Source of the DNA: an uncultured bacterium
GTDB taxonomy: Bacteria; Krumholzibacteriota; Krumholzibacteriia; LZORAL124-64-63
NCBI GenBank assembly: GCA_903912525.1
Contig: CAIWHK010000025.1
Span: 136,881 to 200,880, forward strand
Reading direction: 5' to 3'
Length of the DNA stretch: 64,000 bases
Part shown: positions 4,177-57,000 of the stretch, one piece after another
Layout: the number at the start of each line of letters is the position of its first letter
How positions within the stretch are numbered: the stretch's first letter is position 1
Program-made: the position numbers and the translations under genes
Notes under the pieces: model-generated
What the model saw: only the letters and a program-made list of their open reading frames with translations
The model's database searches: none
What the model was told of the DNA's origin: nothing

Positions 4177-4233
4177 TCCGGACCGCGCCGCCGCCGGCGG
4201 CCACCGACCGTGCATTGCGCCGGCTGCAGGACG

Positions 4234-4251
4234 ACTTGCGCCGGCGCAACT
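4234..4251. repeat. intergenic palindromic element copy (ACTTGCGCCGGCGCAACT), plus half-site TTGCGCCGGC at 4215-4224
   Basis: Seen directly; 3' of yebC. Confidence 0.8.
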
Positions 4252-4445
4252 GTCTTGCGCCTCCCCGTTCGACTCATCATCGCGCCCGGCCGGGCGCCCT
4301 CCATCGCGACGACAATGAAGTTGCCCTCTCAACAGCGGGCGGCATGCCATCACGCGCGCGTGGCGGCCCCCGACCGGCGTGCTAGATTGACGCCTCGCGA
4401 CGTCCGACTGATGACCTGCCGATCCATGAACATGGAGGATGCCCG

Positions 4446-5453
4446 ATGATCCAGGACCGCAAGATCATGCGGAGCGTCCCCACCGCGTTCATCGCCTTCA
4501 TCGCCCTCTTCACCCTGCTCTGCGCAGCCGCGGCGCACGCCCAGGACGGTGCCCAGGACGGCGCTATTGTCGCGCGCGACACCCTGGCCTTCACGCCCGC
4601 GCAGAAGCAGTACTTCATCGAACGGGTCCGCCAGCGCGGGACCGAACTGGACCTCGACAACCTCATCATCCAGCGGATCACCTACCTGAGCGACGGCCTG
4701 CGCGTGAAGGGCTACCTGGTCGAGCCGGCGACAGGGGATTCGCTGCCGGCGGTCATCTTCAACCGGGGCGGGAACCGCGATTACACCGCGCTCAGCGACA
4801 CGTTCGCCGTGGTCCGTCTGGGTGTGCTGGCGCAGCACGGCTACATCGTCGCGGCGAGCCAGTACCGCGGCAACAAGGGCGGCGAGGGTCGCGAGGAGTT
4901 CGGCGGCGCCGACGTCGACGATGTGCTGAACCTGATCCCGCTGCTCGACCACCATCCTCGCGTGGATGCGTCGCGGCTCGGGATGTACGGCTGGAGCCGG
5001 GGCGGGATGATGACCTATCTCGCGCTCGCGCGGACCGACCGCATCCGGGGCGCCGTGGTCGGTTCGGGCATGGCCGACGCGTTCGACATGGTGACCCGCC
5101 GGCCGGAGATGGAGACGGGCGTGTTCGCCGAGTTGGTGCCCAACTGGGCGCAGGACCGTGACGCGGCGCTCGCGGCGCACTCGGCCGTGCGCTGGCCGGA
5201 GAAGCTGTGCAAGACGACGCCCATCCTCCTCCTTCACGGCAGCGCCGACGTGCGGGTCAACCCGCGCGAGGCCCTCAGCATGGCGGACGCGCTTTACGAA
5301 GCGCACCATCCGTTCCGCTTCGTCCTGTTCGAGGGCGGCGACCACGCGTTGTCGGGGTTCCGGCCGGAAGTCGACCGGGCCGTGACGGAGTGGCTCGACC
5401 GCTACGTGCGTGATAGGGCGCCGCTGCCTGACCTGCAGCCGCACGGGCCCTGA
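4446..5453 (+). CDS. secreted alpha/beta hydrolase, prolyl oligopeptidase (S9) / dienelactone hydrolase-like
   Basis: Signal peptide; GWSRGG nucleophile elbow (GxSxG), later catalytic D and H (LLLHGSADVRV, GGDHAL); GGAGGA RBS before ATG 4446. Confidence 0.75.
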   Translation: MIQDRKIMRSVPTAFIAFIALFTLLCAAAAHAQDGAQDGAIVARDTLAFTPAQKQYFIERVRQRGTELDLDNLIIQRITYLSDGLRVKGYLVEPATGDSLPAVIFNRGGNRDYTALSDTFAVVRLGVLAQHGYIVAASQYRGNKGGEGREEFGGADVDDVLNLIPLLDHHPRVDASRLGMYGWSRGGMMTYLALARTDRIRGAVVGSGMADAFDMVTRRPEMETGVFAELVPNWAQDRDAALAAHSAVRWPEKLCKTTPILLLHGSADVRVNPREALSMADALYEAHHPFRFVLFEGGDHALSGFRPEVDRAVTEWLDRYVRDRAPLPDLQPHGP

Positions 5454-5508
5454 GTCGGGCGGCAAGTCGCCTCTGCCTCTCTCTGCACAAATGTCCCCAT
5501 TTCGCGAT

Positions 5509-5526
5509 ACTTGTGCCGGCGCAAGT
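5509..5526. repeat. intergenic palindromic element copy (ACTTGTGCCGGCGCAAGT)
   Basis: Seen directly; between hydrolase gene end and Ser/Thr kinase start. Confidence 0.8.
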
Positions 5527-5669
5527 GTCGGAACGTCAACATTTACTGCCCGGAAGATCCTTCACAGCGGCGCGGCCCAACCAACGCTTGCCCCCATCGG
5601 CGTCCGTATCTAGAATGACATCCATTATCATTCAGATGTCACCGTCCCGTTCCACCCCGAGGTGCCCCG

Positions 5670-8600
5670 ATGAACGATGACCGTACGCTGCCCGTCGGCC
5701 CCGACGATGACCGCACGCTGCCCCTCGACGGCGCCGGCGGCGGTGGGCGCCCGGACGAGGATGTCGGCGCGATCATCGGCCCCTACCACCTGGTGCGGCG
5801 ACTGGGCCAGGGCGGCATGGGCGATGTCTTCCTGGCCGAGCAGCAGGAGCCCATCAAGCGGCGCGTCGCGTTGAAGGTCATCAAGCAGGGCATGGACACC
5901 CGCGCGGTCGTCGCCCGCTTCGACGCCGAGCGCCAGGCGCTGGCCCTGATGGACCACCCCTGCATCGCCAAGGTGCTGGACGCCGGCGCCACCGCGCGCG
6001 GCCGCCCGTTCTTCGTGATGGAGTACGTCGACGGCGAGCCCATCACCGACTACTGCAACCGCCACCACCTGGGCACGCGGGAACGGCTCGAACTCTTCGT
6101 GCGCGTCTGCGAGGGCGTGCAGCACGCGCACCAGAAGGCCGTCATCCATCGCGACCTCAAGCCCTCGAACATCATGGTCGCGGAGATCGACGGCCAGCCC
6201 GTGCCGAAGATCATCGATTTCGGCGTCGCCAAGGCCACCACACAGCGCCTGACCGAGATGACGATGTTCACCGAGATGGGCCAGCTCATCGGCACGCCCG
6301 AGTACATGAGCCCCGAGCAGGCCGCCGGCAGCATCGACGACATCGACACGCGCGCGGATGTCTACGCGCTGGGCGTGGTGCTGTACGAACTGCTGGCCGG
6401 CGCGCTGCCGTTCGAGTCGCGCGAACTGCGCAAGGCCGGTTACGACGCCATCCGGCGCATCATCATCGAGCAGGAGCCGCAAAGGCCGAGCACGCGCTTC
6501 GCCAGCCTGGGCGAGCGCTCATCGACGATCGCGACCGCCCACGGCACGGCGCCGCAGCGCCTGCGCAGCGAACTGCGCGGCGACCTCGACTGGATCACGA
6601 TGAAGGCCCTGGAGAAGGACCGGGACCGCCGCTACGAGACGGCCAACGGCCTGGCGGCCGACGTCCGGCGCCACCTGCGCCAGGAGCCGGTGACGGCCGG
6701 GCCGCCGAGCGCCTCGTACCGGCTGGGCAAGCTGGTGCGGCGCAACCGCCGGACATTCGTCGCCATGGCGACCATCGCCGTGGTGATGGTGGCCGCGACC
6801 GTCGTCAGCTCGGTCATGTACGCCCGCGAGCAGCGCGCCTCGCTGGCGGCCCGGCGCGAGGCGACCCGCTCCGCGCAGGTCTCCCACTTCCTGGGCGACA
6901 TGCTGGCCGGCATCGGCCCCCACGTGGCGCGCGGGCGCGACACCGAGCTGCTGCAGGCGATCCTGTCGGACACGGAAAAGCGGTTGAGCGACGAGCTGGT
7001 CGACGAGCCCGAGGTGGAGGCGACGCTGCGCCTGCAGCTGGCCAACACCTACCGGCAGCTCAGCGACTGGGATGCCGCCCGGAAGCAGCTCGACCGCGTG
7101 AAGGAACTGCAGGCCACGCGCCACATCCTCACACCCAGGCCGGCGCAGGTGGCCACGTCCGCGGCTTCGCTGGCCTGGGTCAGCGGCGACCTGCCCCTGG
7201 CCGAAAAGCTGTTCAGCGAGGGCCTGGCGGGCATGGACGGCGCGGCCGACGTCGACTCGCTGGAGTGGGCCGAATCGAGCCTGCACCTGGGCAGCATCAT
7301 CCAGGAAGCCGGCCGCTATGCCGAGGCCGACTCGCTGATGCGCGGCGCGCTCTCGGTCTACCGCCGTCAGCCGCGCGAGAGCGACGGGCTGGCCGTCGCG
7401 CTCAACAGCATGGGCAACCTGGCGCGCTACCAGGGCAACCTCGAACTGGCCGAGGAGCGCTATCGCGAGGCCCTGGACATCCACCGCCGCGTGCTGGGCG
7501 AGGACCACCCCTACGTGGCGACCGACATGCACAACCTCGGACGGCTGCTCGAGGCGCGCGGCAACAAGCCCGACGCCGAAAAGATGCTGCTCGACGCCCT
7601 GGACATCATTGACAAGGTCCATAAGGGGCCGAACGCCGATACGGCGATCGTCATGAGCTCGGTGGCCGATTTCTACCTGAACATGCAGCGACTGGACAAG
7701 GCCGACTCGCTGGTCGCCGCCGCCTACGAGATGACGTGCCAGGTGTACGGCGTCGATTCGGATGATGCCCGGCGCGCGCGCCTGGCCGTCGGCGAATTGA
7801 TGCGGCGGAGCGGGCGCTTCCCCGAGGCCGAGGCCTTCTTCCTGGCCATGCTGCCCGACGTCCGCGCGCACTCGACCGCCGATGCCACCATGCTGCCCGA
7901 CCTGCTGCGCCGCTTGGCCACCGCCCTGGTCTCGCAGGGCCGCGAACGCGAAGCCCTCCCCCACTACAGCGAGGCCGCCGCGATCTACACGAAGGTCCAG
8001 GGCACGGACCACCCCAACACGCTGCTGGTGCGCAACGACCAGGCGCGCGCGCTGGCGACCCTCGGCGACGATGTCGGCGGCCTGGCCCTGCTGCAGGAAG
8101 TGCTGGCGGCGCGGGAACGCGTGATCGGTCCCTCGCATCCGGAGACGGCCATCACGCGCATCGACCTCGGCCGCTCGTTGTGGCGCCTGGGTCGGCTGGA
8201 GGAAGCGGAGGCATCGCTACGGCGGGGCCGCGACGACTACAGCGCCGCGCAGGGCATCGAGCACCCGGGCCGCTGGAACGCCACGCTCCACCTGGCCGTC
8301 GTCCTGCGCGATCTCGGGCGCCTCGAAGAAGCGACGAAGGAACTGCGGGAAGCGGAGGCCTTCTTCGTCAAGACCGGCGGCGAGGGCGGCAGGGGAACCC
8401 AACTGACCCGTGTCCGCCTGGCCTCGGTCGAACTGTGGGCGGGGCGTGTTTCCGAGGCCGACCGGCTGCTGGCCCAGGCGCTCGACCCGGCGGCCGGCGA
8501 AGTGGCGACCTGGCTTCCCGGCTTCGCCCAGACCGAATTCGGCGATGTGCTGCTGAAGAACGGCCATCCCGCCGAGGCCGCCGAGCACCTGCGCCGCGCC

Positions 8601-8732
8601 TACAAGATGCTGCTGGCCGCATCCGGCCCGACCGACCGCGACACGCAGAAGGCGGTTCGCCTGCTGGTCAAGGCGTACGAAGCGCAGGGGCGCACCGCCG
8701 AGGCGGCGCAGTGGCGGGCGAAACTGAGCTGA
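5670..8732 (+). CDS. serine/threonine protein kinase with transmembrane segment and C-terminal TPR repeats
   Basis: Hanks kinase motifs GQGGMGDVF, VALK, HRDLKPSN, DFG, TPEYMSPE; one TM helix; long TPR region after it. Confidence 0.85.
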   Translation: MNDDRTLPVGPDDDRTLPLDGAGGGGRPDEDVGAIIGPYHLVRRLGQGGMGDVFLAEQQEPIKRRVALKVIKQGMDTRAVVARFDAERQALALMDHPCIAKVLDAGATARGRPFFVMEYVDGEPITDYCNRHHLGTRERLELFVRVCEGVQHAHQKAVIHRDLKPSNIMVAEIDGQPVPKIIDFGVAKATTQRLTEMTMFTEMGQLIGTPEYMSPEQAAGSIDDIDTRADVYALGVVLYELLAGALPFESRELRKAGYDAIRRIIIEQEPQRPSTRFASLGERSSTIATAHGTAPQRLRSELRGDLDWITMKALEKDRDRRYETANGLAADVRRHLRQEPVTAGPPSASYRLGKLVRRNRRTFVAMATIAVVMVAATVVSSVMYAREQRASLAARREATRSAQVSHFLGDMLAGIGPHVARGRDTELLQAILSDTEKRLSDELVDEPEVEATLRLQLANTYRQLSDWDAARKQLDRVKELQATRHILTPRPAQVATSAASLAWVSGDLPLAEKLFSEGLAGMDGAADVDSLEWAESSLHLGSIIQEAGRYAEADSLMRGALSVYRRQPRESDGLAVALNSMGNLARYQGNLELAEERYREALDIHRRVLGEDHPYVATDMHNLGRLLEARGNKPDAEKMLLDALDIIDKVHKGPNADTAIVMSSVADFYLNMQRLDKADSLVAAAYEMTCQVYGVDSDDARRARLAVGELMRRSGRFPEAEAFFLAMLPDVRAHSTADATMLPDLLRRLATALVSQGREREALPHYSEAAAIYTKVQGTDHPNTLLVRNDQARALATLGDDVGGLALLQEVLAARERVIGPSHPETAITRIDLGRSLWRLGRLEEAEASLRRGRDDYSAAQGIEHPGRWNATLHLAVVLRDLGRLEEATKELREAEAFFVKTGGEGGRGTQLTRVRLASVELWAGRVSEADRLLAQALDPAAGEVATWLPGFAQTEFGDVLLKNGHPAEAAEHLRRAYKMLLAASGPTDRDTQKAVRLLVKAYEAQGRTAEAAQWRAKLS

Positions 8733-8745
8733 GGCAGTAGGGAGG

Positions 8746-9939
8746 CTAGTCCTCGGTCTCGCGGATGCGCGCCAGGTCGCGGTGGTGCGCCAGGAAGATC
8801 CCCAGCAGTTCCGGGTCAAAATGCTTGCCCGAGTCCGCCTGCATCGTCTTGGCGGTTTCCTCGTGGGTCCAGGCGTCCTTGTAGACGCGGCGGCTGGTCA
8901 GGGCGTCGTAGACGTCGGCGATGGCGACGATGCGGGCCGACAGCGGGATCTCGCGTTCCTTCAGGCCCGCGGGATAGCCCGTGCCGTTCCACTTCTCGTG
9001 GTGGCAGCGCGCCACCTCGGCGCCCATGGTGATCATCGCGTAGCGGCCGTAGTCCTTGATCAGGCCCTCGAGCAGCTCGGCGCCGATCTCCGTGTGCGAC
9101 TTCATCACCGCGAACTCGGCCTCGGTCAGCTTGCCGGGCTTCAGCAGGATGGCGTCGGGGATGCCCACCTTGCCCACGTCGTGCAGGGCGGCGGCGCGCG
9201 CGATGGTCTCGATGAACTGCGGCGTCGCCTCGGGGTAGCCGGGACGTTCGGCCAGCAGGCCCGCCAGGAAGCCCGAGTAGGCGCACATGCGGCGCAGGTG
9301 CTCGCGGATGTGCGTGTCGCGGATCTCGGCCAGCAGCGCCATGCCGCGGATGACCGCGTCACGGCTGCGGCTCAGCTCGTTGACCAGCCGGATGTTCTCC
9401 AGCGAGTACGACATCTGGTCGACCAGCATCGTGCACATGCCGATCTCGGCGGGCGAGAACGCATGGGGGCGACGGCTGCCGAAGTCGAACACGCCGACGG
9501 CGCCGCGGTACGAGATGATCGGCAGCGCCAGCGCACTGGCGACCCCCGCGGCCAGCGGCTGCAGGTCCTCCAGGCCGGCCACGTCGGCCACGTGCACCAG
9601 GTATTCCTCGCTGAAGGCCTGCGCGTGCATGCTGTTGCTGTCGCGCGTCGAGACGCGCAGCCCGGGCTGCAGGCCGCGGTAGCCGTCGGCGGCGCGCAGC
9701 ACCAGCTCGCCGGTGGCGCGGTCGAGCAGGAACAGGGCACAGCAATCGCAGCCGATGACGCGGCGCGCACCGGCGACGACGTCGGCGTACGACGCCTCGT
9801 CGACCGGCATGCACACCAGGCGCGCGTTGAACGCCTGCAGGGCGCGCAGGCGCTCGACGTTTACGCCCTGGTCGCGGGGATCCGATGGCTCGGCAGGCCC
9901 CGTGTGCGTCAGGGTGGGATATCCGGTGTCGTCTGCCAT
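8746..9939 (-). CDS. GAF domain + HD-GYP domain cyclic-di-GMP phosphodiesterase
   Basis: HD...HHEKWNGTGYP (HD-GYP signature) C-terminal; GAF-like N-terminal region; start taken at MADDTGYPT (cat 9937-9939) to avoid overlap with ispG. Confidence 0.8.
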   Translation of the reverse strand: MADDTGYPTLTHTGPAEPSDPRDQGVNVERLRALQAFNARLVCMPVDEASYADVVAGARRVIGCDCCALFLLDRATGELVLRAADGYRGLQPGLRVSTRDSNSMHAQAFSEEYLVHVADVAGLEDLQPLAAGVASALALPIISYRGAVGVFDFGSRRPHAFSPAEIGMCTMLVDQMSYSLENIRLVNELSRSRDAVIRGMALLAEIRDTHIREHLRRMCAYSGFLAGLLAERPGYPEATPQFIETIARAAALHDVGKVGIPDAILLKPGKLTEAEFAVMKSHTEIGAELLEGLIKDYGRYAMITMGAEVARCHHEKWNGTGYPAGLKEREIPLSARIVAIADVYDALTSRRVYKDAWTHEETAKTMQADSGKHFDPELLGIFLAHHRDLARIRETED

Positions 9940-10056
9940 CTCCAACCCGGTGTGCCACGGCCCGGGCGGCCGGTTCAATCGAATGCGTGCGCTCGGGGCC
10001 GGGATCGGCAATTCCGCGAACGACTTGATGGATTTCGGCCCCCGCCGGCGGTATCC

Positions 10057-13118: not shown

Positions 13119-13236
13119 GCGCTTGGTCTTCCCGCGTTGCGGTCAGGAGGCACGGCGCCGGTCGCGGCGCGAGGGGTCACTATACACCGTGGCGACCTCC
13201 CGTCGCCACCGGCCGGGTGCGCGCCGCGCCACGGGC

Positions 13237-13971: not shown

Positions 13972-13973
13972 GC

Positions 13974-15225
<1,252 letters not shown>

Positions 15226-15233
<8 letters not shown>

Positions 15234-16190: not shown

Positions 16191-16207
16191 CCGCCCGGCT
16201 CCCGGTG

Positions 16208-17277
<1,070 letters not shown>

Positions 17278-17281
<4 letters not shown>

Positions 17282-18358: not shown

Positions 18359-18425
18359 CTTCCGGAACGGCCCCAGCGCCCGCCCCGCGGGCCAGGAAAA
18401 CGAGGGCCAAGGGACTGCCCCGATG

Positions 18426-18459
18426 AGAAAAAGGGCACCGGGCAATCTACCCGGCGCCC
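18426..18459 (-). terminator. Rho-independent terminator downstream of rpmE
   Basis: On minus strand GGGCGCCGGG-tagattg-CCCGGTGCCC hairpin followed by TTTTTCTC. Confidence 0.6.
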
Positions 18460-18543: not shown

Positions 18544-18762
18544 CTACTTCTTCTGTCCGTAGCTGGCGTCCGCGTACCGCTTGCGGAAACGCTCCACGCG
18601 CCCGGCGGTATCGATGATCTTCTGCTGGCCCGTGAAGAACGGGTGGCATGCCGCGCAGATTTCGACGTTCAGCTTGTCCTTGGTCGACCGCGTGCTGATC
18701 ACATTGCCGCACAGGCAGGTGATGGTGCAGTCCACGTACTTCGGATGGATGTTGTCTTTCAT
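18544..18762 (-). CDS. rpmE: 50S ribosomal protein L31
   Basis: [48 protein letters not shown]... canonical L31 with CxxC...C zinc ribbon. Confidence 0.9.
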
Positions 18763-18930
18763 AGCTCCCGCTGCCTTTGCGCCGGCCGGGGCTTCCCGCC
18801 CCGAGAACGTCTGCTGAGACGCCAAAGAAATAAGGAATGGTGCGGCATGCAAGGGAATTCTGGCCCGGTCTCCCCGCCACCCCCCGGCCGGGCCCCCGAA
18901 AGGGCCCCCAGGGCTCCATTGGGGCCCTTA

Positions 18931-20178
18931 TCAGGCGTTCATGGCCGCCAGGAATCCGGCGTTGTCCTTGGTTTTACTCAACTTATCGATCAGAAACTCC
19001 ATGGCCTCGGTCGGATTGTAATCCGCCAGGTACTTCCGCAGGACCCAGATCTTGGCCAGGTCCTTCGGATCCAGGAGCAGGTCTTCCTTACGGGTGCCCG
19101 ACTTGAAGATGTCGATGGCGGGGTACACCCGGCGATCGGCAATCTTCCGGTCCAGCACCAGTTCCATGTTACCAGTGCCCTTGAATTCCTCAAAAATGAC
19201 CTCGTCCATGCGGCTGCCCGTCTCGATCAGGGCCGTCGCGATGATGGTCAGCGACCCGCCGTCCTCGATGTTGCGGGCGGCGCCGAAGAACCGCTTCGGC
19301 TTCTGCAACGCGTTGGAATCCACACCGCCGGACAGGATTTTTCCCGAGTGGGGCACCACGGCGTTATGTGCGCGCGCCAGGCGGGTGATCGAGTCCAGCA
19401 GGATGACGACATCCATCCCGTTCTCGACCAACCGGCGCGCCTTCGCCAGAACCATGTTGGCCACCTGCACGTGCCGCTCGGCAGGCTCGTCGAAGGTGGA
19501 GCTGACGACCTCGCCCTTGACCGAGCGGGCCATGTCCGTGACTTCCTCCGGGCGCTCGTCGATGAGCAGGACGATCAGGTGCACCTCGGGATGGTTCGTC
19601 GTGATCGCGTTGGCGATCTTCTGCAGGATGACCGTCTTGCCGGCGCGCGGCGGCGACACGATCAGGCCGCGCTGTCCCTTGCCGATGGGCGCCATCAGGT
19701 TGATCAGGCGCGTGGTCATGTTCTTGGGGTCGTGCTCGAGGTTCAGCATCTGCTCCGGGTACAGCGGAGTCAGGTTGTCGAACAGCGTGACCTTCTTGGC
19801 GTTGGCCGGGTCCTTGTAGTTGACGGATTCGACCTTCAGCAGCGCGAAATAGCGCTCGTTGTCCTTCGGGGGACGCACCTGGCCGCTGATGGTGTCGCCG
19901 GTCTTCAGGTCGAACTTCTTGATCTGCGACGGCGAGAGGTAGATGTCGTCGGGACCGGGCAGGTAGTTGTACTTGGCCGACCGCAGGAACCCGTAGCCCT
20001 CGGCCAGCACCTGCAGGACACCCTCGGCGTAGATCAGCCCGTTCTTCTCGGTCTGTCCCTCGAGGATCTTGAAGATCAGCTCGCTCTTGCGCAGCGTGCT
20101 GAGCGCCTCGATGTTCATGCCGCGAGCCACTTCCACGAGCTCGTGGATGTTCATCTCCTGCAGTTCCTTGATATCCAT
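18931..20178 (-). CDS. rho: transcription termination factor Rho
   Basis: N-terminal RNA-binding domain, Walker A GKT / ATPase and Q/R loops; start at MDIKELQEM (cat 20176-20178). Confidence 0.9.
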
Positions 20179-31123: not shown

Positions 31124-33751
31124 ATGCCATCGATCCGCAAGTTCGTCGTCACGCCCAACCTGCCCGACCCGCTCAAGCCGTTGCTCGACATCGCGCGCAA
31201 CGTCTGGTGGAGCTGGAATGTCGAGGCCATCTCGCTGCTCCGGCGCGTCGATCCCGACCAGTGGGACCGGCACGCCGGCAACCCGGTGGCGGTGCTCGGC
31301 TCACTGTCGGCGCAGCGGGTGCGCGAACTCGAGCGCGACCAGGCGTTCCTGGCCCACCTCGAGCGCGTGCAGGGCGACCTCGAGCGCTACCTGACGCACC
31401 CGACGTGGTACGCAAGCGAGCACCAGGGCGTCGGCGAGGGCCTGGTCGGCTATTTCTCGCTGGAGTTCGGCCTGCACGAATCGTTGCCGCTGTACTCCGG
31501 CGGCCTGGGCATCCTCGCGGGCGACCACCTGAAGTCCGCCACCGACCTGGGCATCCCCCTGGTCGGCGTGGGCCTGGCCTACCAGTCCGGCTACTTCCGC
31601 CAGTACCTGAACCATGACGGCTGGCAGATGGAGGAGTACCCGGTCAACGACTTCTACAACATGTCGATGTCGCTGGAGCGTGACAAGGACGGCGCGCCGC
31701 GCCTGATCGAGGTGCACTACCCGGGCCGCTCCATCTTCGCGCAGATCTGGCGCCTGCAGGTGGGCCGCAACCCCCTGTTCCTGCTGGACACCAACGTGAT
31801 GGAGAACCAGCCCGACGACCGCGACCTGACCGCGCGCCTGTACGGCGGCGACAACGACATGCGCATCCGTCAGGAGATCATGCTGGGCATCGGCGGCCTG
31901 CGCGCCCTGATCGCGCTGGGGCTCGAGCCCACGGTGTGCCACATGAACGAGGGCCACTCGGCGTTCCTGGCGCTCGAGCGCATCAACCTGCTGATGAAGC
32001 ACCGCAAGCTGGCGTTCGAGACGGCGTTCGAGATCGTGCGCGCCAGCAGCATCTTCACCACGCACACGCCGGTGCCCGCGGGCAACGACCACTTCCCGCC
32101 CGAGCTGGTGCGCACCTACCTGGCGCGCAAGGCCGACGAGATGGGTATCGGCATCGATCGGCTGCTGGCGCTGGGTCGCCAGGACCCGCAAAACACGGCC
32201 GAGACCTTCTGCATGACGGTGCTGGCGCTGCGGCTGAGCCGATTCGCCAACGGCGTCAGCGAGCTGCACGGCCACGTCTCGCGCAACATGTGGCAGCGCG
32301 TGTGGCCCGAGGTGCCCGAGAACGAGATCCCCATCACCCACGTGACCAACGGCATCCACACCCGCAGCTGGCTGTGCTCGGAGATCGCGCGCCTGTACGA
32401 CCGCTATCTCGGGCCCCGCTGGTACGAGGAGCCCACGAACAAGACGTTGTGGGACCGCGTGGACCAGATCCCGGACGCCGAGCTCTGGCGCTCGCACGAG
32501 CGCATGCGCGAGCGGCTGGTCGGCTTCACCCGCAGCCGGCTGCGCAAGCAACTGAAGCGCCGCGGCGCCAACCGCATCTGGATCAAGGCGGCCAGCGAGG
32601 CGCTGGACCCCGAGGCCCTGACCATCGGGTTCGCGCGCCGGTTCGCCACGTACAAGCGCGCGGCGCTGTTGCTTTCGGACCCGGAGCGGCTGAGCCGCAT
32701 CCTGAACAACCCGGACCGCCCGGTGCAGCTGATCTTCGCCGGCAAGGCCCACCCGAAGGACCACCCGGGCAAGGAAGTCATCCGCCAGCTGGTGCACATG
32801 GCCGAGCGCGAGGAGTTCCGCAAGCGGATCGTCTTCGTCGAGGACTACAACATCGAGGTGGCGCGCTACCTGGTGCAGGGCGTGGACGTGTGGCTGAACA
32901 ATCCGCGGCGGCCGCTCGAAGCCAGCGGCACCAGCGGCATGAAGGTGCCGCCCAACGGCGGCATCAACCTGTCGGTGCTCGACGGCTGGTGGTGCGAGGG
33001 ATACAAGACGGACAATGGCTGGGCCATCGGCGCCGGCGAGGAATACGACGACCAGAACTACCAGGACGACGTCGAGAGCACGGCGCTGTACGACCTGCTC
33101 GAGAACGAGATCGTGCCGACGTTCTACGACCGCGGCCTGGACGGCGTGCCGCGCGAGTGGACGCGCATCATGAAGAACTCCATGCGCACAGTGAACGCCG
33201 AGTTCAACACCAACCGCATGGTCGAGGAATACACCGAGCGCTTCTACATCCCCTGCCTGGACAACATGCGGCGCCTGGCCGCGGACAACCACGCGCTGGC
33301 CGCCGACCTGGCCGACTGGCGCCGGCGGCTGCACGCGAACTGGCATGGCGTGCAGATCCTGTCCGTCGATGCACCGCCGCTCAAGGCGCAGCCGATGGGC
33401 GCCATGCTGCCGGTCACGGCACAGGTGCGGCTGGGCCCGATCAGCTCCGACGAGGTGCTGGTCGAGGTCTACCACGGCCTGCTGGACACGAACGGCCACA
33501 TCGACAACGGCGAGACCGCCACGATGTTCGCCCAGGGCAAGCCCACGAACGACGGCGTGGTCACCTTCAAGGGCGAGATCCCCTGCCGGCGCGCCGGGCG
33601 CCGCGGGTTCTCGGTCCGCCTGGTGCCGCGCAAGGACGGTGTGCCGCTGGACCGCTTCGAGACCGGCCTGATCTGCTGGTGGCACGACGAGTCGGTCGAA
33701 CCGTCGCCGACGCCGCAGGGCGCCTCGGGACAGACGGTGCACTCGCACTAG
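31124..33751 (+). CDS. glgP: alpha-glucan phosphorylase (GT35, GlgP-family)
   Basis: Full-length alpha-glucan family phosphorylase; pyridoxal-phosphate lysine region (SGTSGMKVPPNGG); AGGAGA RBS before ATG 31124. Confidence 0.85.
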   Translation: MPSIRKFVVTPNLPDPLKPLLDIARNVWWSWNVEAISLLRRVDPDQWDRHAGNPVAVLGSLSAQRVRELERDQAFLAHLERVQGDLERYLTHPTWYASEHQGVGEGLVGYFSLEFGLHESLPLYSGGLGILAGDHLKSATDLGIPLVGVGLAYQSGYFRQYLNHDGWQMEEYPVNDFYNMSMSLERDKDGAPRLIEVHYPGRSIFAQIWRLQVGRNPLFLLDTNVMENQPDDRDLTARLYGGDNDMRIRQEIMLGIGGLRALIALGLEPTVCHMNEGHSAFLALERINLLMKHRKLAFETAFEIVRASSIFTTHTPVPAGNDHFPPELVRTYLARKADEMGIGIDRLLALGRQDPQNTAETFCMTVLALRLSRFANGVSELHGHVSRNMWQRVWPEVPENEIPITHVTNGIHTRSWLCSEIARLYDRYLGPRWYEEPTNKTLWDRVDQIPDAELWRSHERMRERLVGFTRSRLRKQLKRRGANRIWIKAASEALDPEALTIGFARRFATYKRAALLLSDPERLSRILNNPDRPVQLIFAGKAHPKDHPGKEVIRQLVHMAEREEFRKRIVFVEDYNIEVARYLVQGVDVWLNNPRRPLEASGTSGMKVPPNGGINLSVLDGWWCEGYKTDNGWAIGAGEEYDDQNYQDDVESTALYDLLENEIVPTFYDRGLDGVPREWTRIMKNSMRTVNAEFNTNRMVEEYTERFYIPCLDNMRRLAADNHALAADLADWRRRLHANWHGVQILSVDAPPLKAQPMGAMLPVTAQVRLGPISSDEVLVEVYHGLLDTNGHIDNGETATMFAQGKPTNDGVVTFKGEIPCRRAGRRGFSVRLVPRKDGVPLDRFETGLICWWHDESVEPSPTPQGASGQTVHSH

Positions 33752-33776: not shown

Positions 33777-33816
33777 CGCCGGCCGCTCCCTGCAGGGGGC
33801 GGCCGGCGTGTTTTTG
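33777..33816 (+). terminator. Rho-independent terminator after glgP
   Basis: CGCCGGCCGC-tccctgcaggggg-GCGGCCGGCG hairpin followed by TGTTTTTG. Confidence 0.7.
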
Positions 33817-33836: not shown

Positions 33837-34595
33837 TCAGGCGCCGCGTTCCACGCGCACGACGGCCGTATGCACGATGCGGTCGTGTGACAACCGGCGA
33901 TTCGGCTCGCGCCACAGCGAAAGCAGCCCGAGGCCCAACGTCGCGGGGATCTCGAGCAGGCCGGCCGCGCGCTCGAAGCTATCGAAGAGCGACAGTTTCT
34001 CGCCGCCGAGATGCACGACGCGGATGCCGAGCAGTCGCTTGCCCAGGGTCTGCCCGCGCCGCGAGGCGTGGCACAACGTGAAGTACAGCAACACCACGCC
34101 GAACAGGGCCACAAGGCGCAGCGGGGTCGGCATCAGCCGATGGATCTCGAAACGGATCGACTTCTCGGGCACCACGCCGCCCTCGGTCTCGTCGAAGTTG
34201 AGGGAGTACATGAGATCGTAGCCCCTGAGCGCCTCGATGGCCGCGGCGGTGTCATGACGCTCGACGGCCAGCTCGACCTCAGCCGGGACGCCGGGCATCT
34301 CCGCGCGGACGAGCACGGGCGCCAGGTCGCCCCAGGCGACGTCGGCCTGCTCGGGCGTGGGCTTGCCGTACAGGGTCGTCGCGGCCCGGTAGGCGGCCGG
34401 CTCGGCCAGGTTCAGGTACAGGGCGGCCGCACCGATCGCGACCGCCAACATCGGCGCCAGCATGACCACATAGTCGAGCGCGAGGGCAGCCGCGCGGCGG
34501 CCCGGCGAGGCGAGCTCGCGGCCGACCAGGGCGCGCGAGACTTGCAATGATTCCCCAGTCAACAGCCTGCGGCTGCCGGTCTGTCGGTGGCCCAT
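33837..34595 (-). CDS. RDD family membrane protein
   Basis: RDD-family signature region (ASRRGQTLGKRLLGIRVV) with flanking TM helices; start codon uncertain (34595 or 34607). Confidence 0.5.
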   Translation of the reverse strand: MGHRQTGSRRLLTGESLQVSRALVGRELASPGRRAAALALDYVVMLAPMLAVAIGAAALYLNLAEPAAYRAATTLYGKPTPEQADVAWGDLAPVLVRAEMPGVPAEVELAVERHDTAAAIEALRGYDLMYSLNFDETEGGVVPEKSIRFEIHRLMPTPLRLVALFGVVLLYFTLCHASRRGQTLGKRLLGIRVVHLGGEKLSLFDSFERAAGLLEIPATLGLGLLSLWREPNRRLSHDRIVHTAVVRVERGA

Positions 34596-34798
34596 GTCCC
34601 CTCCCATCCTCGGCGTCCCGGTCGTCGGCGGCCAGGTCCGGAGCGTACCATTGCCGCTCCCGTCCGGCCACCTCTTGGCACTTCCGGGCTTGAGCGGCCC
34701 GCCGACTTGGGGGACACTGGCGTCCCTGACCGGCGAGCCCCGGTGGCCCACCCCAGGAGTCCCGATCCCGACAAGCCGACCCCGAAAGGACGCCCCCG

Positions 34799-43600: not shown

Positions 43601-43612
43601 CAGCCCCCCTGC

Positions 43613-45616: not shown

Positions 45617-45669
45617 GATTTCCCGATCCCTTTCCCTGTTCGGCGCCGACGCCGGCGCCGGGTCGCGGC

Positions 45670-46008: not shown

Positions 46009-46677
46009 GACGTCCGGCCTCCTTGCCGGGGTGTCATCGCCGCGAGGGCTCGCCGCATCCGTGCGGCGTCGCTGCCGATCGCGCGGGCGCTGTCCAGGGA
46101 CCGGCCGGTGTGTTCCCGGTTGTCGGTCCGGGCCGGTCCCTGAAATCCAGGATTGGCCGCCCTGCCAGTTCCTGTCGCGGGTCGTTCGGTTCGCCCGCCT
46201 GTGCGGGCTGCGGCCGTCTCTGCCTTCCGCGGCGCATCCTTGCGCCACGGTCGGCCGGCGAGGGGCGGCTGGGCACCCAGGACCAGTGAACCCACCCCTC
46301 GCGCCGTCGGAGATCCGTCTCCACCCCCTTGCGGGGGCCCATGGCTCCGTCATCGGGCCTGGCTGGCCGAACCGTTGGACCTGATCAGTAAGTCGCCGCG
46401 AGCTCCGTCCGCGCGCCCTGCCGATCGTTTGCGCCGTGGCCGCCCCTGCCCGGGATCCTTCCCGGAACGGGTTCGTGCGACCGGGCGCATATGCTTTAAT
46501 AATTGAAGTACTTTTCTTTGTAAAGCTTAAAATGACGACGCAGCACACCTTTTTTTCCGGGGACGCCACGCGGTCCCAGCATTGGAATTGCAGCCCGCCG
46601 AACGCTACTTTGCCGAAGCGGTTTCATGAAGGCGGGCGCGCCGCAGCGCCCGGGGGATCCTGCCGGAAGGAAGCGCC

Positions 46678-47877: not shown

Positions 47878-47928
47878 CCCGCAGGCGGCCGGAGCCCGGT
47901 GACATCACGGGCCGCGTCTGCTAGAGTG

Positions 47929-47971
47929 AGGCCACGGCGGCCGCCGGTTCATCGGCGGCCGCGGCCTTTTC
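47929..47971 (+). terminator. Rho-independent terminator after rocD
   Basis: GGCCACGGCGGCCGCCG-gttcat-CGGCGGCCGCGGCC hairpin followed by TTTTCC. Confidence 0.6.
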
Positions 47972-47994
47972 CGGCTGCCCCAAGGAGAGCCCTG

Positions 47995-49389: not shown

Positions 49390-49464
49390 TTCCGTAGAAC
49401 CAAGGTTGCGGCCCGGCTGTCCGGGCCGCGACCCCCGTCCCCGCCAACTGCCTGGAGGTTTCCG

Positions 49465-52812: not shown

Positions 52813-52844
52813 CAGGCTGGAGCACCAGCTTCGTGACGGACGAA

Positions 52845-52880
52845 GGCGCCGCTTCCGGGAGGAGGCGGCGCCTTTCGATT
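52845..52880 (+). terminator. Rho-independent terminator after tricorn protease gene
   Basis: GGCGCCGCTTCC-ggga-GGAGGCGGCGCC hairpin followed by TTTCGATT. Confidence 0.6.
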
Positions 52881-52885
52881 GGCCA

Positions 52886-52936
52886 CTTGCGCCGGCGCAA
52901 GTATCCGCAAGTCGCGAGAATTGCGCCGGCGCAAGT
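52886..52936. repeat. two copies of the intergenic palindromic element (ACTTGCGCCGGCGCAAGT at 52886-52903 and AATTGCGCCGGCGCAAGT at 52919-52936)
   Basis: Seen directly; between convergent tricorn and small HTH genes. Confidence 0.85.
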
Positions 52937-52947
52937 GCCCGGCGTCC

Positions 52948-53130
52948 CTACTTCACCGCCTTCTTCACCTTCGCCACGACGTCCTTGCCGTACAGGTTGC
53001 ACACCCCGCGCTTGGCCTTGGGCTGGATGTCGAGTTCCTTCAGCGCCTTCTTCACCTTGGCGTCGGTCAGGCCGAGCTCCTTGGCGATGGCGCCGGCGGT
53101 CAGCAGGTCCGCGTTCTTGTCGGTGGGCAT
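52948..53130 (-). CDS. small (60 aa) putative HTH DNA-binding protein
   Basis: MPTDKNADLLTAGAIAKELGLTDAKVKKALKEL... helix-turn-helix-like N-terminus, Lys-rich C-terminus; no confident family. Confidence 0.4.
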   Translation of the reverse strand: MPTDKNADLLTAGAIAKELGLTDAKVKKALKELDIQPKAKRGVCNLYGKDVVAKVKKAVK

Positions 53131-53189
53131 GGGCTCGTCCTCCTGGGGCTGTAGGGATCGCGTGTCTCGCGGGCGGGCGCGCGGGCCGT

Positions 53190-53699
53190 TCAGGCCTCGT
53201 ACAGCTCGCCGACACAATCCTTGTACGTAAGGTACAGGCGCGCGTCCAGTTCCAACTGGTCGTAGTCGGCCGCCATGTGGCGGCAGAGCTGGTAGAAGGC
53301 GCGGTTGTGCTCGGTCTCCTTGAAGTGGGCCAGCTCGTGGATCAGGATCATGTCGAGGAACGGCAGCGGCGCCTTGCGGAAGACCGTGGCGACGCGGATC
53401 TCGTTGCGCGTGCTGAGCCGGCTGCCGTGGATGCGCGAGGTCTTGCGGTGGATGCCCAGGGCGTTGTGCACCGCGTGCAGCTTGGGATCGTAGACGACCT
53501 TCCACAGCGCAGGCGCCTGGCGCATGTAACGGTTCTTGAGCTCGACAGCGTAGCCGTAGAGCGCCTTCTCGTTGCGGTACTGGTGCGTCTCGGGATAGCG
53601 CTCGAGCAGCCACGCGCCGAGTTTCCCGTCGTCCAGCAGTTCGCGGACCTGGCCGATGATCTCGGCGTCATAGCCGGTCAGGTAGGGTAAAGGCTGCAT
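53190..53699 (-). CDS. YgjP-like (DUF45) zinc-dependent hydrolase
   Basis: HELAHFKETEHNRAFY HExxH-type motif typical of the YgjP/DUF45 family. Confidence 0.65.
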   Translation of the reverse strand: MQPLPYLTGYDAEIIGQVRELLDDGKLGAWLLERYPETHQYRNEKALYGYAVELKNRYMRQAPALWKVVYDPKLHAVHNALGIHRKTSRIHGSRLSTRNEIRVATVFRKAPLPFLDMILIHELAHFKETEHNRAFYQLCRHMAADYDQLELDARLYLTYKDCVGELYEA

Positions 53700-53703
53700 T
53701 TGG

Positions 53704-53955
53704 CTACCGCCCCCCTGCCGGCCGGCGATGGGCGCGTCGCGTGTGCAGGCGGATATAGAGATCCTCCACCTGCTTGCGGGCCCACGGCGTGCGGCGCAGG
53801 AACTTCAGGCTCGAAGCGACCGACGGGTCGGTGGTGAAGCACTTGATCTTGACCCGCGTGCCCAGCTCGGCCCAGCCATAGTGCGCCACCAGGGCGATAA
53901 GCACGTCCTCGAGCGTCTTGCCGTGCAGGGGATTGTCGGGCTGTTCTTCGACCAT
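53704..53955 (-). CDS. DUF2132 domain-containing protein
   Basis: [24 protein letters not shown]...[29 protein letters not shown] matches conserved DUF2132 pattern. Confidence 0.55.
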
Positions 53956-54017
53956 GGGGCGCACGTCCGCTCGGGCTCGGGGAATGTTCGGGAAGGCCCG
54001 CGTGTCAGGCGCGGCGC

Positions 54018-56063
54018 CTAGAACACGACCCGCAGCACCCCGCGCAGCGTGCGGCCGTCCTGCTCGATCGCGTCGAGGGCGCCGACGCCCGGGCTGCGGT
54101 AGTCCACATCGAACAGATTGTACAGGCTCACCGACAGCGACGCCACCTCGCGCCAGCGGCGCGCGTACAACGTCGCGTTGACGAGCCAGAGGTCGTCCAG
54201 CGCCTGCCCGCCCGACGTGATGCGCTCGCTGGCATACTGGGCCTCGAGGCCCGCCAGCAGCCAGGCGCCCGCCAGCGGCGTCGAGACATTGAGCTTCCCG
54301 AGGTACGCCGGCGAATTGACCAGCCTGCTGCCGGTCGCGTCGTCCTCGGCGTGGGTGTAGGTGAAGCTCGCCCGCACGAAGACGTCGGCAGCCGGCTCGC
54401 CCTCGGCCTGCAGTTCGACGCCCAGCGCCTTCACGCGATCGAGGTTGGCCGAATAGTACAGCCCATCCTCAGGATCCTGCAGCTCGCCGATGAGGTTGGT
54501 GACGTCGTTGGCGAAGCCCGCCACCGAGGCCCGCCAGTCGGCGCCCAGCCGGCGCTCACCCACGACCTCGTACGTCGTGATCTCCTCGGGCTCCAGGCCG
54601 GGGTTGACCTTGCCGCTGATGCCGCCGTCCTCGTAGTAGAATTCGTAGGCACTGGGCGCGCGGAAGGCCCGGCCGTAGAGGAGCTTGATGGTCGTGACAT
54701 CGTCGGCGCCGATGACGCAGGCCAGGCGCGGGTTCACGACGTCGCCGAACGAGTCGTAGTGGTCCAGCCGCACGCCCGCCGTGATGCCGAGGCGCTCGCC
54801 GGGCCGGTATTCGTCCTGCGCGTAGAAGCCGACGACATGCGTTTCGGGATCGATGTCCAGCCAGCTGAACGGCGGCGTCGAGAGGTCGTAGTTGCGCATC
54901 GACTGGCGGTAGTCGTACCGGTACTCGGCGCCCAGGACGGCGGTGTGGCGCGGGTCGGGCCGCCAGTTCAACTGCAGCTCGCCGCCCACCGACTGGGCCA
55001 GGCTCTCGTCGCGGTTGACCAGCAGGTCGCGCGGCTGCCCCTCCTCCGCCATGTCGTACGGATAGTCGCCCCAGTAGCTGTAACGGTCGTAGTAGAGGCG
55101 GGCGTCCAGGTCGGTCGTCGGCGACAACGCGCGCGCATACCGGCCCTCCAGGAAGGACCGCGCATCGAAGGTCTTGCGCGGCACGTCGGCGGGCATTCCC
55201 CAGGCCGGCGGTCCGTGCTTGGTGCGCTCGGCGTAGAAGCCCTCGACGGACAGGCCCCCGTGGTGGTGGCTCACCATCAGCCGCCGGCCGGTCTGGTCGT
55301 CGCCGTCGCGCAGCAGGCCATCGCCCGCGCCGGCATCGACGAATTCCTGCAGGTAAAGGGGGTTCTGGCCCTCGCTCCGGAAGGCGCTGGCCGAGACCAG
55401 CAGTTCCGCGCCGCACTGCGCGCGGTGTCCCCAGGTCAGGCGGCCGCGGCGGGTGTCGAGCGAACCGACCTCGCCCGTGGCCTCGAAGCCGTCGAAATCG
55501 CCGGCCTGCTTCGTGATGACGTTGATGACCGCGAAGAAGGCGTTGTTGCCGTAGAGAGCCGAGCCCGGGCCGCGCACGATCTCGACGCGGTCAATCAGGT
55601 CGAGGTCGAGGATGAAGTCCTCGACAACGGCTGCCGTGTCGTAGAGCGGATCGTTCAGGCGGTGCCCGTTGACGAGCAGGAGCAGGCGGCCGCCGAAATC
55701 GCCGGGGCGGTTGAAGCCGCGGACGCCGGCGAAGCCGTACGTGCGCGGGTTGATCGCGTAGAAGCCCGGCACGCTCTGCAGCAGGTCGGCCAGCGTGCGC
55801 CAGCCGTAGAGCCTCACCTCCTGGCCGGTGACCACCGTCACCGAGGAAGGCGCCTCGGAGGCGTCCTGCGCGCGCTTGGCGGCCGTGTAGACCGGGATCG
55901 CCATCAACTGGTCCAGGCTCAGGCCAAGCAGGTCGTCGTCGGACACCGTTTCGGCGGCCGGGCACATCGTTGCCAGCATCACGAGGCCGATCACCAGGGC
56001 GCAGCAGGCGCGGCGCGTCGATCCCTGTCGTGGGCGAAACAGGAGGTCCATCTCCATCATCAT
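54018..56063 (-). CDS. TonB-dependent outer-membrane receptor
   Basis: Signal peptide, plug domain ([24 protein letters not shown]), 22-strand barrel, terminal ...LRVVF. Confidence 0.75.
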
Positions 56064-56173
56064 CCCCCTCGTCCTGGTCGCGGCGCACGGGCCCGGGGCG
56101 TCCGGCCGGCGCACGCAAACGATGCGGCCATTCTGGCGCACACGAGGGCCTGGGACAATGTCTTTATCGGGAA

Positions 56174-56863
56174 TCAGCGCGCGGTGCAGGCGGCGCCGAG
56201 CGCCCCGGCCATGACCGCGATGTCCGTGAGCCCGACCGCCCCGTCGAAATCGAAATCGGAGCGGTAGTTGTAGGCGCCCTGGTAGTCGGTCGCCAGGTAC
56301 GGGATGTCCGCAAGGTCGACCGACAGGCTGCCGTCGATGTCGGGGCTGTTGAACCACAGGTTCAGCGACGTCGCGCCGCAGTACATGTCCGGCGACCAGT
56401 AGAACATGGCCGTGCCGGTGGGATGCCCCGTCGCGTCGACCGGCGAGTGGCCGCCGCCGGGGATGGGCTGCCGCTCGAAGAAGGCAGGACGGCCCTCGGA
56501 GTAGTCGACAATCAGGAGCGGGCCCGGTGCGCCGCAGATGGCCAGGGTCGAGCGGGGGTCCCCCAGCATCAGTGCCTGGTCCGTGAAGTCGATCGGCGTC
56601 CAGGTGCCGGCATCGGTGAGATACTCGACGCGATAGAGAAGCAGGGCGATGCCGCCGGCGGTCGCGTCATCCAGCGAGGTCCGCCCGTCCGGGTAGATGC
56701 ACACGCTGTTGGGCGTGGTGATCATCGCGGGCGTGAAGGGCGCCATCTGCGGCCACAGGCGGTAGGGGCACATGCCGGCGGCGGCGGGAAGGGCGACCAG
56801 CGATAACAGGACGAGCGCTGTGGCAACCACCGGAGCCATCGGCTGAAAACGGTGAAACCTCAT
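56174..56863 (-). CDS. hypothetical secreted protein with C-terminal dockerin-like calcium-binding repeats
   Basis: Signal peptide; DIDGSLSVDLADI and DFDFDGAVGLTDIAV dockerin-like repeats; directly upstream of the TonB receptor gene. Confidence 0.4.
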   Translation of the reverse strand: MRFHRFQPMAPVVATALVLLSLVALPAAAGMCPYRLWPQMAPFTPAMITTPNSVCIYPDGRTSLDDATAGGIALLLYRVEYLTDAGTWTPIDFTDQALMLGDPRSTLAICGAPGPLLIVDYSEGRPAFFERQPIPGGGHSPVDATGHPTGTAMFYWSPDMYCGATSLNLWFNSPDIDGSLSVDLADIPYLATDYQGAYNYRSDFDFDGAVGLTDIAVMAGALGAACTAR

Positions 56864-56978
56864 GGCCCTCCACCTCATCGCCACCCGGCGGGCCCGGCCC
56901 GCCATCCCCGACACACCTGCGTCAGCGACCATTGTAGCACCGGCGGCGGGGAAATGAAGGAGCTTTCGCAGCTACGCG

Positions 56979-56996
56979 AGTTGCGCCGGCGCAAGT
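56979..56996. repeat. intergenic palindromic element copy (AGTTGCGCCGGCGCAAGT)
   Basis: Seen directly; 3' of membrane-protein gene 57001..57528, upstream of the dockerin-like / TonB receptor operon. Confidence 0.8.
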
Positions 56997-57000
56997 CTCC

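Follow-up and report, generated by a model that had tools for sequence, protein, structure and literature searches.

Short palindromic repeats dispersed over bacterial chromosomes are known from proteobacteria, as repetitive extragenic palindromes (REP) and hairpin-forming REP doublets (REPIN), and from cyanobacteria, as the highly iterated palindrome HIP1; how such repeats spread and are maintained is still debated. A REP unit is asymmetric, having a conserved 5' tetranucleotide and an imperfect stem that together give it an orientation. Another class of repeated words, the uptake sequences (DNA uptake sequence, DUS, of Neisseria and uptake signal sequence, USS, of Haemophilus), are 9-12 nt long, non-palindromic and found about once per kb, with DUS pairs often located after genes. 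The REP-containing bacterial interspersed mosaic elements (REP/BIME) and the REPIN-RAYT systems (RAYT, REP-associated tyrosine transposase) of E. coli and Pseudomonas were treated by Bertels and Rainey (2011; PMC3116915), while REP functions are summarized in PMC5861425. HIP1 is an 8-bp word with up to one copy per 350 nt, in genes and intergenic DNA alike (Xu, Lawrence & Durand 2018; PMC5861425). Here, we describe a family of 18-bp perfect palindromes with the sequence ACTTGCGCCGGCGCAAGT (hereafter, the 18-mer), found in a 64,000-nt stretch of DNA (the window; positions 136,881 to 200,880 of contig CAIWHK010000025.1, GC about 70%) from an uncultured bacterium of the Krumholzibacteriota, and in related genomes.

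Like REP and REPIN sequences, this family is short, palindromic, dispersed, mostly extragenic and placed past genes; it comes as singlets and as fixed-spacing doublets or arrays folding into a long hairpin, and it is lineage-specific, with presence/absence differences between species. Unlike them, it has a shorter unit (18 bp), perfectly palindromic and lacking an asymmetric head; no RAYT was found in the sampled 0.97 Mb with a crude regular expression; copies also stand in frame within genes, some of them having arisen by substitution; and the word is embedded in HNH nuclease genes (see below) instead of flanking a Y1 transposase. With HIP1 it shares the nature of a perfect, lineage-restricted palindrome whose orthologous sites are conserved beyond codon constraint, in coding and non-coding DNA alike. 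In contrast to HIP1, the word is 18 bp long, occurs at most once per 13 kb, avoids ordinary coding sequence (about 25-fold depletion) and keeps to the 3' ends of genes. Nor does it show the hyper-abundance of a HIP1-like word (about one copy per 0.35-1 kb): the 64-kb window has 5 copies, and about 85 kb of unbiased loci yielded a single extragenic one. A literature search for the 14-bp core of the word found no paper containing it, and another on repeats of Eisenbacteria returned nothing relevant. The family is an undescribed one in uncultured bacteria of the Fibrobacteres-Chlorobi-Bacteroidetes (FCB) group, and its signature is unusually clean: a single 18-bp palindrome, perfect and invariant, of which the window contains no decayed copies; clear placement at 3' ends; and coding copies in three frames, some by substitution. 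Such a signature lets one ask what keeps the word identical apart from what it does to the neighboring gene.

Overall, we interpret these sites as a REP/BIME (REPIN)-like, lineage-specific dispersed palindrome, which is kept identical by sequence-specific recognition and/or conversion and acts as a hairpin or insulator at transcript ends. We give this interpretation a probability of roughly 0.5. The family itself is far above chance and overwhelmingly intergenic, and its copies are found where transcription units end, a short distance past the stop codon. Related species have gained and lost copies, and a copy that is kept stays letter-perfect while the spacer around it diverges.

A search of the whole window for ACTTGCGCCGGCGCAAGT, allowing up to three mismatches, returned five matches in four intergenic regions (copies c1 to c5, Table 1), each with no or one mismatch, as against 0.08 expected from dinucleotide shuffles; none of 100 shuffles gave five. 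The initial annotation, made from the letters of the window, was right in holding that these copies cannot be due to chance and that all five are intergenic and 3' of a gene, as judged by our own gene calls (a heuristic based on GC content at codon positions, GC3, with genes named with Pfam). The mismatch spectrum was bimodal, with five copies at 0-1 mismatches, none at 2-3, and the classes of 4-6 at the Markov expectation; in the window, the family is therefore all-or-none. Several details had to be amended. One copy placed at 52886-52903 lies one base upstream, at 52885-52902; a core said to be perfect in three copies is perfect over 16 bp in one only (52885) and over 14 bp (TTGCGCCGGCGCAA) in four of the five; and the distances to stop codons, given as 40-80 nt, run from 4 to 72 nt (Table 1). 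Canonical hairpin-plus-T terminators were said to adjoin two of the sites, and we found this for a single pair of copies (52885/52919), beside the tricorn terminator at 52846-52875; a hairpin near 4186-4205 has no T-run.

When the five copies were aligned with their flanks, nothing was conserved outside the motif, and when 222 sites of related genomes were lined up on the central 10-mer, the conserved block was again exactly 18 bp. Preferences in the flanks are weak, symmetric and limited to 1-3 bases, differing between the clade of the window (GnG...CnC) and a clade labeled Eisenbacteria (CA...TG). The consensus is a perfect palindrome and so has no orientation. The commonest change in the main word affects position 2 or 17, breaking the pair and the symmetry, while the symmetric double change at this pair (G-C) was seen 8 times versus about 3.5 under independence, a mild, roughly twofold excess; it is a major allele (VAPAQL) in the HNH family discussed below. 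In the Eisenbacteria-labeled clade, further perfect 18-bp palindromes, ACCTGCCCCGGGGCAGGT, ACATGCGCCGGCGCATGT, ACGTGCTGCGCAGCACGT and ACATGTTCTAGAACATGT, occur next to the main word; all have AC...GT at their ends and palindromic centers (CCGG, GCGC, CTAG, TCGA). Several different palindromes may stand at one locus (Table 1), as in L061, where the three repeats of a 41-bp unit have conserved spacers and each a different palindrome. Such symmetry through the center speaks for a site that is recognized or generated as duplex DNA and not for a mere RNA stem-loop, since the loop of the latter could vary. As to folding, a single copy gives a 7-bp stem with a CCGG loop (-8.1 kcal/mol), the doublet c3 and c4 an 18-bp stem of -46 kcal/mol whichever strand is folded (z about -6.5 to -6.9), and c1 can form a long hairpin with the degenerate half copy next to it (-32 kcal/mol, z -3.4).

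Several other views of the unit were rejected. Miniature inverted-repeat transposable elements (MITEs) and elements derived from insertion sequences are units of 50-500 bp with terminal inverted repeats and a target-site duplication; here, the flanks do not align and nothing is kept beyond 18 bp and 1-3 weakly preferred bases. A CRISPR array is at odds with at most four units and 16-bp, partly conserved spacers; in the window, an Rfam search at gathering thresholds gave no match of any kind. A half-site or DUS-like unit was likewise discarded. Lone half-sites are not enriched in the window, and the 9-mer half-site GGCGCAAGT occurs there solely within full copies. Nor has every GCGCCGGCGC core been turned into a full motif, as lone cores stand at 41389, 58619 and 61888 of the window. 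Among the extra half-sites listed by the initial annotation, TTGCGCCGGC at 4215 and GCAAGT at 5462 are in place, and a third, GCAAGT, begins at 52907 and not at 52905. TTGCGCC also occurs beside c1, at 4255-4261, and an isolated half-site, TTGCGCCGG, lies outside any full copy at 18777-18785, in the spacer 18762-18931. Part of the outer arm (CAAGT) also recurs 7-15 nt beyond the palindrome, more often as a direct repeat than in the opposite orientation (14 versus 4 among 183 flanks). This partial repeat is seen in the flanks of extragenic copies in the loci and, in the window, at 52907-52912 and 5462-5467, and sometimes it belongs to a short tandem duplication, such as GCAAGTccggcact, present twice in L029.

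The position of the family relative to genes was established from 153 copies with at most one mismatch, taken from the window and from motif-bearing loci and classified with the same gene-calling heuristic. Fifty were inside called genes, 48 in co-directional, 22 in convergent and 13 in divergent spacers, and 20 at contig edges. Coding sequence makes up 86% of the classified DNA and intergenic sequence 14%, yet 83 of the 133 placed copies were intergenic. Of the 50 coding copies, 31 fell in HNH genes and 19 elsewhere, about 7 of the latter at the very edge of the called gene (leaving about 12 inside other genes). With the HNH genes left aside, the intergenic enrichment per bp is about 25-fold. 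The initial annotation had named a background frequency of the motif, coding regions included, as the mark of a non-specific word; instead, coding copies are strongly depleted outside one nuclease gene family. Within co-directional spacers, copies lie a median of 42 nt past the upstream stop versus 137 nt ahead of the next start and are nearer to the stop in 34 of 48 cases (Wilcoxon 5e-5). Convergent spacers hold the most copies per spacer, at a median of 21 nt from the nearest stop, whereas divergent spacers are the poorest in copies per kb, and those present there lie a median of 117 nt from the start codon. Many copies are less than 25 nt from a stop codon. The neighboring genes have no common theme: a scan of 85 flanking proteins gave 114 unrelated Pfam families, and genes having copies on both sides are ordinary ones.

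Neighboring copies favor an exact period of 34 bp, observed in 12 cases including c3/c4 and with up to four units (L070). The 16-bp array spacer tends to ctc-N10-gag, and its end, ...cg(t/c)gag, is common to c3/c4 and the arrays of relatives. Comparison of orthologous gene ends from different species (79-94% nucleotide identity; a small sample of three pairs) showed the motif kept at 18 of 18 positions in L037/L082 and L011/L023 and at 16 of 18 in L029/L049, while the spacers had diverged. Other comparisons (L050 and L015, each versus L058) revealed a copy that only one of the two species has. In 3 of 5 orthologous comparisons, homology was lost exactly at the motif. We considered the motif as a synteny breakpoint or recombination site and rejected this, because in the yebC control the flanks break on both sides with or without it; hence, no role in rearrangement is proposed. 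Gene order around yebC differed from that of window positions 1-9000 on both sides in every relative examined (L115-L119, 83-92% YebC identity), synteny in this lineage being very poor. For c1 and c2, the only relative with a copy is L115, where it stands in a different spacer, and the genes around yebC are different in every relative.

A scan of a genome collection of 596 Gb found the exact 18-mer in at least 93 stretches of DNA. Among the matches listed, most came from about 15 related metagenome-assembled genomes (MAGs) with a GC content of 66-73%, and singletons in unrelated taxa were at chance level, about 9 matches being expected by our arithmetic for an 18-mer in 596 Gb. The single match among viral contigs, on a contig with 56% GC, was also at chance level. 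The family is thus restricted to a group of uncultured bacteria with about 70% GC. Taxonomic labels of the motif-bearing MAGs are mutually inconsistent: "bacterium", Candidatus (Ca.) Krumholzibacteriia or Krumholzibacteria, Ca. Eisenbacteria or, implausibly, Fibrobacteraceae. One "Krumholzibacteriia" contig is 87% identical to a contig of another bin, and window positions 45.7-51.2 kb match the "Fibrobacteraceae" contig L079 at 80-89% identity. The window YebC is 100% identical to a protein on a 14.7-kb metagenome contig of the Joint Genome Institute (JGI), and those of its relatives at 82-85% identity that bear an organism name are labeled Ca. Krumholzibacteria or Krumholzibacteriia. The MAGs called "uncultured Fibrobacteraceae" (L042, L057, L068, L079 (CAYNPY01) and L026 (CAZWYF01)) have 72-73% GC. 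Since L079 resembles the window so closely and the named relatives of the window are Ca. Krumholzibacteria, the public label Fibrobacteraceae looks wrong. No copy was found in about 100 kb around relatives of the tricorn gene (58-68% amino acid identity), and the two motif-bearing clades had no orthologues common to both in the sampled loci. The word can be used as a lineage marker in metagenomes. It also probably makes assemblies break, as many contigs with the motif or with HNH genes are short.

Turning to the mechanism, copies would be held identical by a putative dimeric protein recognizing the symmetric site (or its hairpin or cruciform), and/or by continual copying or gene conversion. 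We favor sequence-specific recognition or conversion because all 18 positions are held, the self-complementary center included, and no decayed copies are seen; a merely structural requirement is rejected as the cause because it would not fix 18 bases together with a palindromic loop. Past stop codons, a single copy would provide a modest hairpin and a doublet an 18-bp stem. The likeliest effect on the host would be insulation of the transcript 3' end, as a barrier to exonucleases or to read-through, as REPs do.

Several points weigh against such a scenario. The loci were ascertained on the motif and the gene calls are heuristic; ascertainment inflates the number of exact copies and of multi-copy hosts, although the bias toward intergenic DNA and stop codons does not stem from it. 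About one-third of the copies in relatives are within coding sequence, and at least two of the coding copies arose through substitution and not insertion, unlike what cut-and-paste or copy-paste movement predicts. No RAYT/Y1 signature turned up in the window and loci (six-frame HUH...Y search), and transposases were not among the families ranked in the scan of 85 flanking proteins. The perfect palindrome has none of the asymmetry that orients REPs. Only 1 extragenic copy was met in the unbiased loci from relatives (yebC neighborhoods and the flanks of two HNH genes), so density varies between genomes; it is uneven, and a figure of hundreds per genome is not established. Finally, the role at 3' ends is inferred from position only. 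Overall, the REP/BIME-like character proposed in the initial annotation is supported by lineage restriction, intergenic enrichment, 3' bias, 34-bp arrays and presence/absence between species, whereas the failure to find a RAYT in the sampled DNA, the lack of orientation and the coding copies depart from it.

The coding copies deserve a closer look, as they bring forward a candidate partner for the palindrome. Depending on the frame, the word within genes reads LAPAQV, LRRRKS or TCAGAS, and all three frames occur. In a MutS-like protein, LLAPAQV aligns without gaps to SYVPAQK of E. coli MutS; substitution created this copy. In HypF, DLRRRKS falls on an insertion of 6 residues not shared by a solved HypF. 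The main coding hosts are HNH endonucleases of family hn1 and of the distant family hn2, the latter found in the Eisenbacteria-labeled clade. For hn1, databases contain more than 577 relatives, most of them located on short contigs. Copies within these genes occupy fixed sites: a disordered linker, the start of a helix before ...ACDA..., and the C-terminal tail. At about 40-60% identity, relatives have L[ST][PR]A[EQ][LA] in the same columns, gap-free; the word was therefore written over a pre-adapted peptide. An HNH domain was detected in hn1 (PF01844, 1e-10) with no match to DUF222 (PF02720), the N-terminal region that accompanies HNH in the DUF222-HNH ("REP13E12-type") endonucleases, while some relatives at 45-66% identity to P0271 carry precomputed PF02720 hits. 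Fold comparison suggests a ParB/KorB-like DNA-binding domain in the HNH protein, with modest scores. A nuclease with such a domain is, speculatively, a candidate reader of the 18-mer, though the support is thin; since the word is embedded again and again in a nuclease family whose fold is one that binds palindromes, the family is a concrete, testable candidate for the partner. The 18-mer differs in sequence from the parS, Noc-binding (NBS) and KorB operators, and its sites cluster past stop codons instead of near the origin or across coding sequence; the HNH protein, for its part, is a nuclease devoid of the N-terminal CTPase domain of ParB.

It is tempting to go further and suppose that the palindrome is the cognate site of this multi-copy HNH family: a dimer would bind through the ParB/KorB-like domain and nick or cut, and gene conversion would then spread and homogenize the copies, those within its own genes serving autoregulation or paralogue shuffling and the pre-adapted codons having been converted from LxPAQx to LAPAQV. 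This would be an undescribed functional analogue of the REP-RAYT system that relies on an unrelated enzyme and belongs to a candidate phylum from which nothing has been cultured. It fits that hn1 and hn2, with 25-34% identity over alignable regions, both have 1-4 copies per gene, that 93 of the best 120 hn1 relatives encode LAPAQ, and that no other 18-nt window of the HNH gene is as conserved as the motif (99% versus 80% overall), in spite of the rare codons CTT and CAA. The paralogues are, in addition, mosaic, their N- and C-terminal parts having different relatives; P0008 and P0040, for example, are 81% identical in the N domain and 100% in the rest. A 22-bp palindrome upstream of a distant member (L121, see below) points the same way. 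However, the window has five copies and no HNH gene of the hn1 or hn2 family, copies do not regularly flank the HNH genes, and a nuclease cutting its own gene would be awkward. Moreover, the genes of the distant members in L120 and L121 contain neither the 18-mer nor any other long embedded palindrome, so that embedding is a property of the motif-bearing genomes and not of the enzyme family. We regard this scenario as doubtful, even if it survives better than the other alternatives. Two related ideas were rejected: that every HNH subfamily has an embedded palindrome of its own, on account of the same L120 and L121 genes, and that extragenic copies are remnants of HNH genes comparable to solo long terminal repeats (LTRs), the flanks of extragenic copies being unlike HNH sequence. 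As for L121, a 1.6-Mb contig locally free of the 18-mer, its perfect, AT-rich 22-bp palindrome (ATTTTCCAATCGATTGGAAAAT, 9892-9913) lies about 90 bp upstream of the distant HNH member and may be an operator.

An architectural site, akin to HIP1 or to the sites of nucleoid proteins, comes next, and we hold it to be unlikely. Here, a symmetric protein would organize or insulate chromosome domains, and placement after genes would merely mark where the word is tolerated. The perfect dyad symmetry through the center, the all-or-none mismatch spectrum, the retention of orthologous sites in diverged spacers, nucleotide-level conservation within coding sequence and gains by substitution at pre-adapted peptides (the MutS-like and HNH cases above) are all what such a site would show, and HIP1 presents like evidence of selection with no gene-level function (PMC5861425). 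Yet the tight coupling to stop codons and the 34-bp arrays are left unexplained, density is low and uneven between related genomes, and the strong depletion in ordinary coding sequence is unlike HIP1.

Plain hairpins, that is, terminators or stabilizers of mRNA 3' ends that have no dedicated partner or copying and owe their identity to recent common descent, would account for the position just past stops and in convergent spacers and for the folding of singlets and doublets. We nevertheless find them improbable. A T-tract (at least four T in the 8 nt after the motif) followed none of 48 gene-oriented copies, consensus scans found no terminator-like site at the copies, and the organism has canonical hairpin-plus-T terminators of its own, as the tricorn terminator beside c3 shows. 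The unrelated flanks mean that the copies are not duplicated loci. Under this hypothesis, compensatory and loop changes are to be expected, whereas 18 bases are fixed and the commonest variant breaks a pair; the coding copies, too, find no explanation. Therefore, the suggestion that the palindromes are accessory terminator hairpins can be retained as far as position goes, while the lack of T-tracts, the weakness of the single hairpin and the invariance of 18 bases, which structure would not need, speak against it. A further bidirectional hairpin of the window, GCCGGCCGCTCCCTGCAGGGGGCGGCCGGC at 33777-33806, is strong, has T-runs on both strands and is situated between the convergent genes 31124-33751 and 33837-34751; it is an ordinary intrinsic terminator of the same organism.

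A word resembling a DNA uptake signal, preferred by a competence receptor and accumulating by mutation and transformation drive wherever it is tolerated, seems very improbable to us. In common with DUS and USS, the exact word is shared by several species with clade-specific flank "dialects", coding copies occur in all three frames, some by substitution, conservation is all-or-none, and copies are enriched after genes, where Neisseria DUS pairs also sit. Known uptake words are, however, shorter, non-palindromic and about ten times denser; in our case, the whole palindrome is the unit, half-sites alone are not enriched, and neither the fixed-period arrays nor the symmetric variant palindromes would be expected.

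Lastly, an operator family of one dimeric transcription factor, for instance the 60-aa protein encoded beside c4 that the initial annotation had put forward, controlling downstream genes, can be set aside as highly improbable: although the palindrome has an operator-like length and three window copies are also upstream of a co-directional gene, copies hug stops (convergent spacers holding the most copies apiece and divergent ones the fewest per kb), occur within coding sequence and adjoin functionally unrelated genes, while the 60-aa protein matches no Pfam or NCBIfam family and is linked to the motif by adjacency only.

Table 1. Copies of the 18-bp palindrome and associated features of the window and of related loci (window positions unless a locus is named)
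Feature	Position	Strand	Remarks
c1, ACTTGCGCCGGCGCAACT	4234-4251		1 mismatch; 57 nt past the yebC stop (4176), 194 nt ahead of the S9-hydrolase start (4446)
Degenerate half copy, cATTGCGCCGGCtgcagg	4213-4230		21 bp upstream of c1
c2, ACTTGTGCCGGCGCAAGT	5509-5526		1 mismatch; 55 nt past the hydrolase stop (5453), 143 nt ahead of the Ser/Thr-kinase-TPR gene (5670)
Sigma-70-like promoter match	5588-5616		between c2 and the Ser/Thr-kinase-TPR gene
Terminator of the tricorn gene, AGGCGCCGCTTCCGGGAGGAGGCGGCGCCT then TTCGATT	52846-52880	+	directly before c3; not a member of the family
c3, ACTTGCGCCGGCGCAAGT	52885-52902		perfect; convergent spacer, 72 nt past the tricorn protease stop (52812), 45 nt to the other gene
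c3/c4 spacer, atccgcaagtcgcgag	52903-52918		16 bp, between the doublet copies
c4, AATTGCGCCGGCGCAAGT	52919-52936		1 mismatch; 11 nt past the stop of the 60-aa gene (52948-53130, minus strand)
c5, AGTTGCGCCGGCGCAAGT	56979-56996		1 mismatch; 4 nt past the stop of gene 57001-57528 (minus strand, 175 aa, unassigned), 64 nt ahead of the start of minus-strand gene 56174-56914
Several different 18-bp palindromes	L036 1407-1569		Ca. Eisenbacteria-labeled MAG
Several different 18-bp palindromes	L061 1459-1558		Ca. Eisenbacteria-labeled MAG
Several different 18-bp palindromes	L053 1379-1466		Ca. Eisenbacteria-labeled MAG
Several different 18-bp palindromes	L030 6425-6511		Ca. Eisenbacteria-labeled MAG
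Several different 18-bp palindromes	L084 2978-3048		Ca. Eisenbacteria-labeled MAG
Several different 18-bp palindromes	L086 2072-2130		Ca. Eisenbacteria-labeled MAG
hn1 gene	L034 430-1464		in-frame copies
hn1 gene	L039 2456-3502		in-frame copies
hn1 gene	L048 3210-4322		in-frame copies
hn1 genes	L043, L041, L046, L058		in-frame copies
hn2 gene	L047 792-2051		in-frame copies
hn2 genes	L062, L073, L022		in-frame copies

Finally, we would like to mention some minor observations. The hydrolase of the window has no exact database record, and positions 46009-46677 of the window form a 669-bp stretch having no gene called by the GC3 heuristic and no Rfam match. In the locus L113 (JADJQR010000001.1, 10001-20385), an HNH gene or gene fragment, two FGE-sulfatase genes and a FlgD_ig gene are duplicated about 6 kb apart, and an FGE-sulfatase gene also adjoins the HNH gene of L114.

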